From: Escherichia coli
GTDB taxonomy: Bacteria; Pseudomonadota; Gammaproteobacteria; Enterobacterales; Enterobacteriaceae
Assembly: GCF_016026235.1 (NCBI RefSeq)
Contig: NZ_CP065613.1
DNA: 64,000 bases
Strand: one strand, 5' to 3'
Shown here: piece after piece, positions 21,001-24,000 of the stretch
Layout of the letters: every line of letters begins with the position of its first letter
How positions within the stretch are numbered: the stretch's first letter is position 1
Program-made: the position numbers

Positions 21001-24000
21001 GGATATTATTTGGATTTTTTGCGCGACGTTGGCAGCGAGTTTGTTACTTTCTATGCTGGTACAACGAATCGACAGAAACAGATTAGTGAGTTAAGTAAAA
21101 GCCCGGTCACATTGGACTGACCGGGCTTACGTGAGTTATTCGCTGTATTCTTCCTGGGTAACCTGTGTTTCTTTTGGTGGGTTTATTCCGGCATCACGAA
21201 TATTTTTCTGCACCGCTACTGCACCAAACAAGCTTAAGAAGAAAGCCAGTCCATAAAAACCTTTTTCGCTGAGTAATAATGTCGCATTCCACAGACCTAC
21301 CATCAGTAATGCAACAGAGATAATAAAGACAGTCAGGCAGGTCATATAATAAATGGAAGTGGTCGGTATGCCTTCATACTTGTCCCGAACGGTCTTTTGA
21401 TAAGACGCCGCAGAAAACAGTCCTAATACCAGTACGGCAAAATAATATCCTTTTTCATTTAACTGCATCTCTGCATTCCATAGCCCTAACAGATAGGTAA
21501 CGATACCACCAACGAGAGCTATCCATGACACAATACTAAAGGCCGGTGAATAGGTTGATATTTTGTTGTCCATCACAGTATTCCTTTCATTCCTGAATGT
21601 GTAAGAGCTTTATGTTGCTCATACCGAGCGAAACAAACGCATTTGACCAAACAAGCAGACAAAAAAGGCGATGGGGTAGATCACCATTTCATAAGCATTG
21701 ATAGGTGCATTTAAAACACCGATAAACAAGAGACCGATAGTGATTAACGCAACTAACTGGCAAATATGGGTAAAAAAATTATCCAGTTGCCCGAGTTTTT
21801 CTGCGCGAAGATATGCATAGTTGCCAAAAGTTGCTGTCATTAACACGCCAAGAAAATAGCCTTTTCCACTCAACAATGGGCATGAGATCCATAGCCCGGT
21901 AATGCTGCCAACTTACTGATTTAGTGTATGATGGTGATTTTAAGGTGCTTGCGTGGCTTCCATTTCCATCAGATGTCCTTCCTGCTCCGCTACTGAAGGC
22001 GTGGTGCGTAACGGCAAAAGCACTGCCGGACATCAGCGCTATCTCTGCTCTCATTGCCGTAAAACATGGCAACTACAGTTCACTTACACCGCCTCTCAGC
22101 CCGGTACGCACCAGAAAATCATTGATATGGCCATGAATGGCGTCGGATGTCGCGCCAGTGCACGCATTATGGGCGTTGGCCTCAACACGGTTTTACGTCA
22201 CTTAAAAAACTCAGGCCGCAGTCGGTAACCTCGCGCATACAACCGGGCAGTGATGTGATTGTCTGCGCTGAAATGGACGAACAGTGGGGCTACGTCGGTG
22301 CTAAATCACGTCAGCGCTGGCTGTTTTACGCGTATGACAGGATACGGAGGACGGTTGTGGCGCACGTCTTCGGTGAACGCACTCTGGCCACACTGGAGCG
22401 TCTTCTGAGCCTGCTGTCGGCCTTTGAGGTCGTGGTATGGATGACGGATGGCTGGCCGCTGTATGAATCACGCCTGAAGGGAAAGCTGCACGTTATCAGC
22501 AAGCGTTACACTCAGCGCATTGAGCGACATAATCTGAATCTGAGACAACATCTGGCAAGGCTGGGACGGAAGTCACTGTCGTTCTCAAAATCGGTGGAGC
22601 TGCATGACAAGGTCATCGGGCATTATCTGAACATAAAACACTATCAGTAAGTTGGAGTCATTACCCCATAGCCCAACCAGATAAACCAGCGCCCCGACAA
22701 CAAATAATAGTTTTGCCACAGTCTTTGAGGTTTTCATAACGATCTCCATATCTACCAGCGATACATTACGAGTAACCAACGAAAGACAAAACTGAAAAAT
22801 GCCATTAACAAATGATTTTCAGAATAAATTCATACTAAATATTAATTAATTACTGAGATATATAGATGTGAATTATCCCCCACCCGGTCAGGCAGGGGAT
22901 AACGTTTACGCCATTAATGGCAGAAGTTGCTGATAGAGGCGACGGAACGTTTCTCGTCGTGGCTGATAAGCGGCATAACGCTGCGCATCTGGTAGATGCG
23001 ACTGTTCTAACGGTAGCTGCGGCAACAACTCAATGAGCGATTTCTCTGGATTCGCCGCAATCTGCGCCAGCCTTGCTGCGCCCAGTGCTGGCCCCACATC
23101 CCCCCCCGTACGGTAATCGAGCTGCTGACCGCTGATATCCGCCAGCATCTGACGCCAGTACTCACTACGCGCACCGCCACCAATCAACGTAACACTTTGC
23201 GGTTTAATGCCGCAGGCATGCACGACATCCATGCCATCTGCCAGCGCATAACCCACGCCTTCCAGCACTGCTCGCGCCAGTTCATTGGGGCCATGTTGAT
23301 GAGTCAAACCAAAGAAAACCCCTTTCGCCTGGGGATTATTGTGTGGTGTACGCTCGCCGGAAAGATAAGGCAGAAACCAAACTGGCTCGGCACTTTCATC
23401 AGCCTGTTGAGCTGCAGCGATTAAAGCTGGGACATTGCTCAGGCCGGTTAATTTCGCGGCCCAATCCAGACACGACGCTGCACTCAGCATTACAGACATT
23501 AAATGCCAACGCTGCGGTAGCGCATGGCAAAAGCTGTGTACGGCGCTTTCTGGCTTGCTTAAGAACCCTTCGCTGACAGCAAAATAGACCCCCGACGTCC
23601 CCAGCGATAACATTGCCTGATTAGCATCAACCATTCCCACACCAACTGCACCAGCTGCATTGTCGCCACCGCCTGCGACAACTGGCACCGTCGCCATACC
23701 CCACGCTTTCGCAACTTCAGGTAACAAAGCACCAGTAATTTCGCTGCCTTCGTATAATGCGGGCATCTGGTCACGAGATAAGTCGCAAGCCTGCAGCATG
23801 ACGTCACTCCAGTCACGCTTTGCGACATCCAGCCACATGGTGCCAGCTGCGTCAGACATATCGCTGGCAAACTCCCCCGTCATACGCAGACGCAAGTAAT
23901 CTTTCGGTAATAATACTTTGTCGATTTGACGGAATATCTCCGGCTCATGCCGCTGAACCCATAGCAATTTAGGCGCAGTAAATCCGGGCATCATCAGGTT

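Follow-up and report, generated by a model that had tools for sequence, protein, structure and literature searches.

IS1 is described as a 768-bp element that carries an A6C site, encodes a 232-aa InsAB' protein and produces an 8- or 9-bp duplication of its target (PMC12428005); a duplication of 8-9 bp is likewise given by a second source, together with a preference for AT-rich targets that show no clear motif (PMC5009759). The IS1F copy of K-12 MG1655 (NC_000913.3 4518472-4519239) sits downstream of the fec genes and is reported to transpose extremely rarely (PMC12428005). A TGG-to-TAG stop at IS position 542, within insB, fits this very low activity, and the insB7 gene of this copy is annotated as a pseudogene. 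The K-12 'consensus' IS1 (IS1A / IS1E, IS1R-like) has an InsAB' of 232 aa as well.

The IS1 copy described here lies in yiaB, within a 64,000-nucleotide stretch of Escherichia coli DNA (contig NZ_CP065613.1) to which we refer as the window. It is identical to K-12 IS1F at 763 of 768 positions and shares with it the length, the insA/insB' layout, the A6C site and the ends (GGTAATGCTGCC... and ...GGAGTCATTACC, comparing the first and last 14 nt). Five substitutions separate the two copies; besides the insB stop, K-12 IS1F has a His-to-Pro change in the CSHC zinc-finger motif of InsA, both absent from the yiaB copy, and two further amino-acid changes relative to it. IS1A / IS1E also share with the element the 768 bp, 23-nt inverted repeats, gene layout, frameshift site and 8-9 bp duplication, but are only 91.1% identical at the nucleotide level (700/768 for K-12 IS1A), differ at 14 of the 232 InsAB' residues and have a left inverted repeat (IRL) that starts GGTGATG rather than GGTAATG. 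Identity to the other IS1 subtypes found at the yiaA-yiaB locus is 91-96%. By these comparisons the element is of the IS1F subtype. The first-pass annotation had spoken of an IS1 variant of 768 bp; its identity as IS1 and its length stand, and the variant can now be named as an IS1F-type copy with an intact transposase.

IS1 copies on the large plasmids of Shigella boydii, S. dysenteriae and S. flexneri (e.g. CP026732.1, NZ_CP026826.1) are 100% identical to the element over 768 bp, on another replicon and at insertion sites other than that of the yiaB copy. Such identity shows only that the isoform, as judged from the matching copies, circulates in Shigella and E. coli; it is no proof of a Shigella origin for the window, which we rejected after the look-up of a junction peptide (see below) led to an assembly labelled E. 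coli. Because the yiaB copy is undamaged and 100% identical to the plasmid copies, its isoform is presumably active as well as in circulation. The element consists of the following features, given in window coordinates.

21889-21897, no strand: left copy of the target-site duplication, CCATAGCCC, directly outside the IS end
21898-22665, plus strand: complete IS1, assigned to the IS1F subtype, exactly 768 bp
21898-21920, plus strand: IRL, 23 nt, GGTAATGCTGCCAACTTACTGAT, from inverted-repeat comparison and the IS1-end pattern
21953-22228, plus strand: insA, 91 aa, repressor and N-terminal part of the transposase (NCBIfam IS1 family and zinc-binding domain; Pfam Zn_ribbon_InsA, HTH_Tnp_IS1)
22147-22650, plus strand: insB' frame, DDE catalytic part, open throughout (NCBIfam NF033558, Pfam DDE_Tnp_IS1)
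22204-22210, plus strand: AAAAAAC (A6C) slippery site for -1 programmed frameshifting (motif present; role from PMC12428005)
22643-22665, minus strand: right inverted repeat (IRR), 23 nt, GGTAATGACTCCAACTTACTGAT (reverse complement), from inverted-repeat comparison and the IS1-end pattern
22666-22674, no strand: right copy of the target-site duplication, CCATAGCCC, directly outside the IS end

All the IS1 family features that can be tested in sequence (length, ends, frames, domain models and duplication) were found, and the length agrees with the reference length for IS1 (PMC12428005). The terminal inverted repeats are imperfect, with 20 of 23 nt complementary, and a degenerate IS1-end pattern matched the IRL and the IRR and nothing else in the 64-kb window, against an expectation of 0.00 (100 shuffles). 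The 9-bp duplication that had been claimed on both sides is present and perfect; two given positions would match over 9 nt by chance with a probability of about 4e-6. Since the empty site in K-12 holds a single CCATAGCCC, which corresponds to yiaB codons 22-24 (G-L-W), the second copy arose by duplication on insertion. The window holds a third copy at 21478-21486; it belongs to the corresponding G-L-W codons in the paralogue yiaA and has nothing to do with the insertion.

The transposase frames run along the plus strand, opposite in direction to yiaB. A conceptual -1 shift at the A6C site yields an InsAB' fusion of 232 aa without a stop, which scores above the cutoffs of the Pfam models Zn_ribbon_InsA (65.8 bits), HTH_Tnp_IS1 (95.1 bits) and DDE_Tnp_IS1 (248.3 bits), and 147.9 bits against the cutoff of 100 for NCBIfam NF033558. 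Read in this way, the transposase frames of the yiaB copy are intact. A promoter-like match (CTGCCA-16-TATGAT, 21905-21932) overlaps the IRL and faces insA, which is where the weak IS1 promoter has been placed (PMC12428005). The promoter and terminator scan, which returned no more sites than in shuffled sequence, found no outward-facing promoter-like site at the edge of the IS. The gene into which the element is inserted, and its neighbour, are laid out as follows.

21619-22737, minus strand: whole interrupted yiaB, from stop to start codon
22666-22737, minus strand: yiaB 5' fragment, codons 1-24, from K-12 comparison
21619-21897, minus strand: yiaB 3' fragment, codons 22-113 and stop, cut off from the start codon and the upstream region, from K-12 comparison
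22585-22737, minus strand: chimeric ORF of 50 aa, with 24 YiaB residues followed by 26 encoded by the right end of IS1, up to a stop, from translation (the peptide is NCBI STM04632.1)
21136-21573, minus strand: yiaA, intact, 45 bp downstream of yiaB (100% amino-acid identity to K-12 YiaA; NCBIfam YiaA 197.8 bits)

Removal of the IS and one 9-mer restores a yiaB of 342 nt encoding a 113-aa YiaB, 110 residues of which are those of K-12 (3 substitutions). The reconstructed protein scores 169.8 bits with NCBIfam NF008492 (cutoff 130) and 44.3 bits with Pfam YiaAB (PF05360, an inner membrane protein family; cutoff 26.6), and the two-helix domain of the latter covers residues 6-51, so that the IS splits the first YiaAB domain. 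As it stands in the window, the frame is broken after codon 24. The span and the approximate codon given by the first-pass annotation were thus both correct, 22737 down to 22666 amounting to 24 codons. Because the promoter-proximal part encodes nothing but the 50-aa chimera and the remaining 89 codons have no start codon, yiaB is almost certainly a null allele and, as read from its sequence, a pseudogene in this genome. A TTG-initiated ORF of 85 aa at 21619-21876 is in principle a candidate for a truncated C-terminal protein, without any sign of expression; a look-up of this fragment returned contigs in which the site is empty or yiaB adjoins a different element. The public record of the 50-aa chimera, STM04632.1, bears the misnomer 'beta-galactosidase'. 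To our knowledge YiaB has no known function and yiaB no known phenotype, and our literature searches on yiaA/yiaB function, on yiaB together with IS1, and on the accessions of the assemblies, returned nothing relevant.

The K-12 MG1655 wecH-yiaA-yiaB-xylB locus was aligned to the window from which the IS and one 9-mer had been removed. The first-pass annotation had staked its reading on a continuous alignment of K-12 yiaB across the two flanks, and the whole locus does align as one ungapped block (1192/1201 identities) that has no mismatch in the 25 nt to each side of the junction, with the gene order wecH-yiaA-yiaB-xylB conserved. An alternative to simple insertion is that the IS1 sits at a junction left by an IS1-mediated rearrangement (an adjacent deletion, an inversion or the resolution of a cointegrate). 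Rearrangements of this sort do occur at the locus: next to the IS1 of ETEC H10407 the 5' end of yiaB, xylB, xylA and part of xylF are missing, and 730V1, YZLc1-3 and Ec-U3 show IS1-bounded deletions without a duplication. The junctions in all of these genomes lack matching duplications, whereas in the window neither flank is missing, the two adjoin each other and remain colinear with K-12, and the 9-bp duplication has no mismatch. Flank colinearity and duplication together refute a rearrangement, to which we grant virtually no likelihood.

We hold with near certainty that an intact IS1F-type IS1 entered yiaB by simple transposition, with a 9-bp duplication, leaving a near-certainly null yiaB. 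By analogy with the chemistry established for IS1, we infer that a -1 ribosomal frameshift at the A6C site would give the InsAB' transposase, that InsAB' would join the element ends to staggered target cuts 9 bp apart, and that gap repair would then duplicate CCATAGCCC (codons 22-24). The mobility of the yiaB copy may have come either from its own transposase or from one acting in trans. The gene, split inside the first two-helix domain of YiaAB, would have lost its function. The event is an ordinary case of IS-mediated pseudogenisation, by a textbook mechanism and of a kind already known.

The distribution of the junction was examined with queries that contained only 27 nt of IS1 each, a stretch shorter than the megablast word size, so that IS1 alone could not seed a match. 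Among 5,426 complete E. coli genomes none carries the right junction, and none the left one, which is approached only by ETEC H10407 (also deposited as SEC470). Scanning the GTDB species-representative genomes for the exact junction gave 0 matches. The 50-aa peptide STM04632.1, a chimera that can exist only at the yiaB-IS1 junction, occurs on only three contigs in a collection of 15 billion proteins. UGFA01000002.1 (GCA_900449985.1), with a length of 4.56 Mb, matches the window with 100% identity over 6,153 bp including the IS, while the draft contigs LSGL01000128.1 (GCA_001907535.1) and NJNA01000060.1 (GCA_002467115.1) are 100% identical over 3.2-3.4 kb and break inside the IS.

Since independent assemblies agree, the insertion is real. 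IS1 is multicopy and often confuses assemblers, and two of the three junction-bearing assemblies break inside the element, as might be expected if a repeat-collapsed IS1 had been misplaced inside yiaB. Misjoining, however, does not produce a perfect 9-bp duplication between exactly colinear flanks, which is the mark of real transposition; moreover, the whole element is spanned by a chromosome-scale contig, and the right junction is reached with 100% identical sequence by two independent drafts. An assembly artefact is hardly credible on these grounds, and simple transposition stands.

The disruption had been called strain-specific. It is indeed absent from the 5,426 complete genomes, but its junction is common to three NCBI assemblies, for which reason it is safer to call yiaB::IS1 lineage-restricted than proven strain-specific; all three may derive from one strain sequenced more than once. 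Measured against the diversification of E. coli, the insertion is recent, given that the two 9-mers are identical, that the IS is 100% identical to circulating copies and that only three closely matching assemblies share the junction.

The neighbouring yiaA had been taken for an intact paralogue of yiaB. The relationship holds (31% identity between YiaA and YiaB, E = 8e-13), and so does the integrity of the gene as far as its sequence goes, its protein being the same as in K-12. IS1 insertions are strongly polar in classical IS1 genetics. With yiaA situated 45 bp downstream on the same strand, its expression may suffer a polar effect; if it is transcribed together with yiaB, the insertion would lower its expression as well.

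The locus has received IS1 repeatedly. Same-strand IS1 occurs within about 1 kb of yiaB in 21 of the 5,426 complete genomes, and a query with the IS reversed added 9 more, for a total of 30; an apparent orientation bias in the first search was an artefact, only same-strand pieces being joined by the search. Mapping of the boundaries onto K-12 gave about 20 other independent IS1 insertions in the 1-kb yiaA-yiaB interval of other strains, at no fewer than 14 distinct sites in the same orientation and 5 in the opposite one, and involving at least 5 IS1 sequence types. They include IS1A, IS1B and two subtypes at 93-96% identity to the yiaB copy, and we regard them as independent because subtypes, sites or orientation, and host lineages differ. 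Each mapped insertion has its own 8- or 9-bp duplication, with the exception of four deletion cases (H10407, 730V1, YZLc1-3 and Ec-U3), and one 8-bp site, TAAATTCA, was used twice by different IS1 subtypes. All mapped sites fall within the 1,034 bp that separate the stop codons of wecH and xylB, where GC is 40.5% against 49.9% for the window. The insertions in ETEC H10407, PEC41, JSWP021, SRR26560795 and others resemble ours in family, in the AT-rich 1-kb interval and in their 8-9 bp duplications.

Three other loci in the window were searched as controls with chimeric queries of identical design, and the numbers of genomes with nearby same-strand IS1 compare as follows.

yiaB, gene GC 41%: 21 genomes
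yiaW, gene GC 45%: 14 genomes, at least 8 distinct spans
yiaG-cspA-hokA, yiaG GC 44%: 27 genomes, many of them clonal
bax, typical GC, gene GC 48%: 4 genomes, all one strain

With counts of 14 and 27 at control loci against 21 at yiaB, we rejected yiaAB as a special hot spot for IS1: it behaves like other AT-rich, dispensable loci. The similar counts are in keeping with the preference of IS1 for AT-rich DNA (PMC5009759) and with the tolerance of insertions in dispensable genes.

These figures bear on the question of whether the insertion was selected, in that loss of YiaB, or a changed expression of yiaA or xylAB, would benefit the host and lead to repeated IS insertions at the locus. The some 20 independent events within 1 kb speak for it, as do one insertion at the nucleotide used here and another 4 bp away, and the fact that the wecH and xylB coding sequences, as far as the search covered them, contain none of the 15 same-strand events. 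Yet yiaW (14) and yiaG-cspA (27) have similar counts to yiaB (21), with bax at 4 from one strain, and the pattern is the one predicted by the AT-rich preference of IS1 (PMC5009759) combined with insertion tolerance in dispensable genes. Furthermore, each event is rare: together they amount to 30 among 5,426 genomes, and none has swept. yiaB has no known phenotype. We thus consider selection improbable.

At a finer scale, three independent IS1 ends fall within 4 bp at yiaB codons 20-24, two of them at the identical nucleotide, and they represent three lineages, two IS1 subtypes and both orientations. In an SRR26560795 contig the left end of an IS1A-type element abuts yiaB at the very nucleotide used here; its opposite orientation and flanks of only 98.9% identity make it an independent insertion. 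In ETEC H10407 an IS1A lies 4 bp from our site. We know of no target motif recognised for IS1. If codons 20-24 were a genuine micro-hot spot, a local DNA feature such as bendability or the binding of a nucleoid protein would steer IS1 at nucleotide resolution. The coincidences with SRR26560795 and H10407 are suggestive of such a site preference, but they do not establish it, because they were found in part by searches anchored on the yiaB-IS1 junction; among the 4 yiaB-internal events found without anchoring, one lies within 4 bp, for which the chance is about 0.1 and not significant. A micro-hot spot is therefore a tentative idea that we think rather unlikely.

The importance of this insertion beyond annotation is small. 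In the annotation, yiaB of this genome should be recorded as an IS1-disrupted pseudogene, and the yiaB-IS1 junction, present in three assemblies against none of 5,426 complete genomes, makes a convenient lineage marker. An intact IS1F-type copy would be a better reference than K-12 IS1F for studying this subtype. As the survey with its controls shows, repeated IS1 insertions at a small, AT-rich and dispensable locus are the norm, and their recurrence by itself should not be read as a sign of selection.

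The IS1A-type element of SRR26560795 (Logan contig 308, last 30 nt) lies at the same yiaB nucleotide as the IS1 in the window (junction 22665/22666), but in the opposite orientation. In the lineage that carries it, the flanks match those of the window at 98.9% identity, and the insertion is an event independent of the window one. A second instance of exact IS1 site reuse is found in the yiaB-xylB spacer, where the 8-bp target TAAATTCA (K-12 locus sequence 3837-3844) is occupied in strains H32 and YZLc1-3 by two differing IS1 subtypes, 93.4% and 96.1% identical to the window IS1. 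The 9-mer duplicated around the window element also has a third copy, CCATAGCCC, at 21478-21486, which falls on the paralogous G-L-W codons of yiaA, in register with an 18-nt stretch that resembles yiaB. This copy reflects the YiaA/YiaB paralogy and is outside the IS1 insertion. The chimeric 50-amino acid ORF that reads from yiaB into IS1 (window 22585-22737) is present at NCBI as STM04632.1 under the name 'beta-galactosidase', a label that is an annotation error.

The window element (21898-22665) was compared with the IS1F of K-12 (positions 2473-3240 of L028, the MG1655 sequence bearing it). Unlike the window copy, K-12 IS1F carries a stop codon in insB (TGG to TAG, IS position 542), a His-to-Pro substitution in the CSHC zinc-finger motif of InsA (position 156) and two further amino acid changes. 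Relative to the window element, the K-12 reference IS1F is a decayed copy; the IS1F-type copy of the window is intact. The lesions fit the near-inactivity reported for K-12 IS1F (PMC12428005).

The window differs from K-12 in several other regions, the first being a chaperone-usher fimbrial operon (1-4800) that K-12 lacks and whose genes are named lpfC and related in similar genomes. Features in the left part of the window are the following:

892-3465, usher of the fimbrial operon
3494-4192, chaperone of the fimbrial operon
4245-4781, fimbrial subunit
5071-6388, second IS (1,318 bp), between the fimbrial operon and yhjX
15502-15929, cspA thermoregulator (Rfam)
16212-16363, sok antitoxin RNA, intact (Rfam)

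The second IS has inverted repeats of 31 nt (90% complementary) and an ORF scoring 359.9 bits against the NCBIfam IS4-family transposase model, and a search for its target duplication revealed no obvious one. It is probably the ~6% of the left flank left uncovered by the best E. coli matches. The IS150 found at K-12 hokA/sokA is missing at ~16247-16285, as is the K-12 rhsA-yibU segment (~8 kb) at ~52143-52174. In place of the ~9 kb K-12 yiaK-sgbE (2,3-diketo-L-gulonate) operon stands a 4.1 kb segment (36726-40851) that truncates plaR and encodes an AraC-type regulator, an MFS_2 sugar symporter and a GH127 beta-L-arabinofuranosidase-like enzyme.

Contigs of GCA_001617095.1 (1-76) and SRR31598801 (1-30) start with ...GGGGAAATTATGAGGGGATCTCTCAG adjoining yiaB, the boundary being 27 bp from the IS1 site (equivalent to window ~21870). 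We take GGGGAAATTATGAGGGGATCTCTCAG to be the outer end of IS10/Tn10, in which case yiaB has been disrupted by a different IS too, in other lineages. In ETEC H10407, an IS1A (NC_017633.1 4112985-4113739) in the same orientation as the window IS1 is located 4 bp from the window site, without a target duplication. Its right end adjoins xylF, meaning that H10407 has lost the yiaB 5' end together with xylB, xylA and a portion of xylF. This arrangement looks like an IS1-mediated adjacent deletion, and such a deletion should abolish xylose catabolism in H10407.
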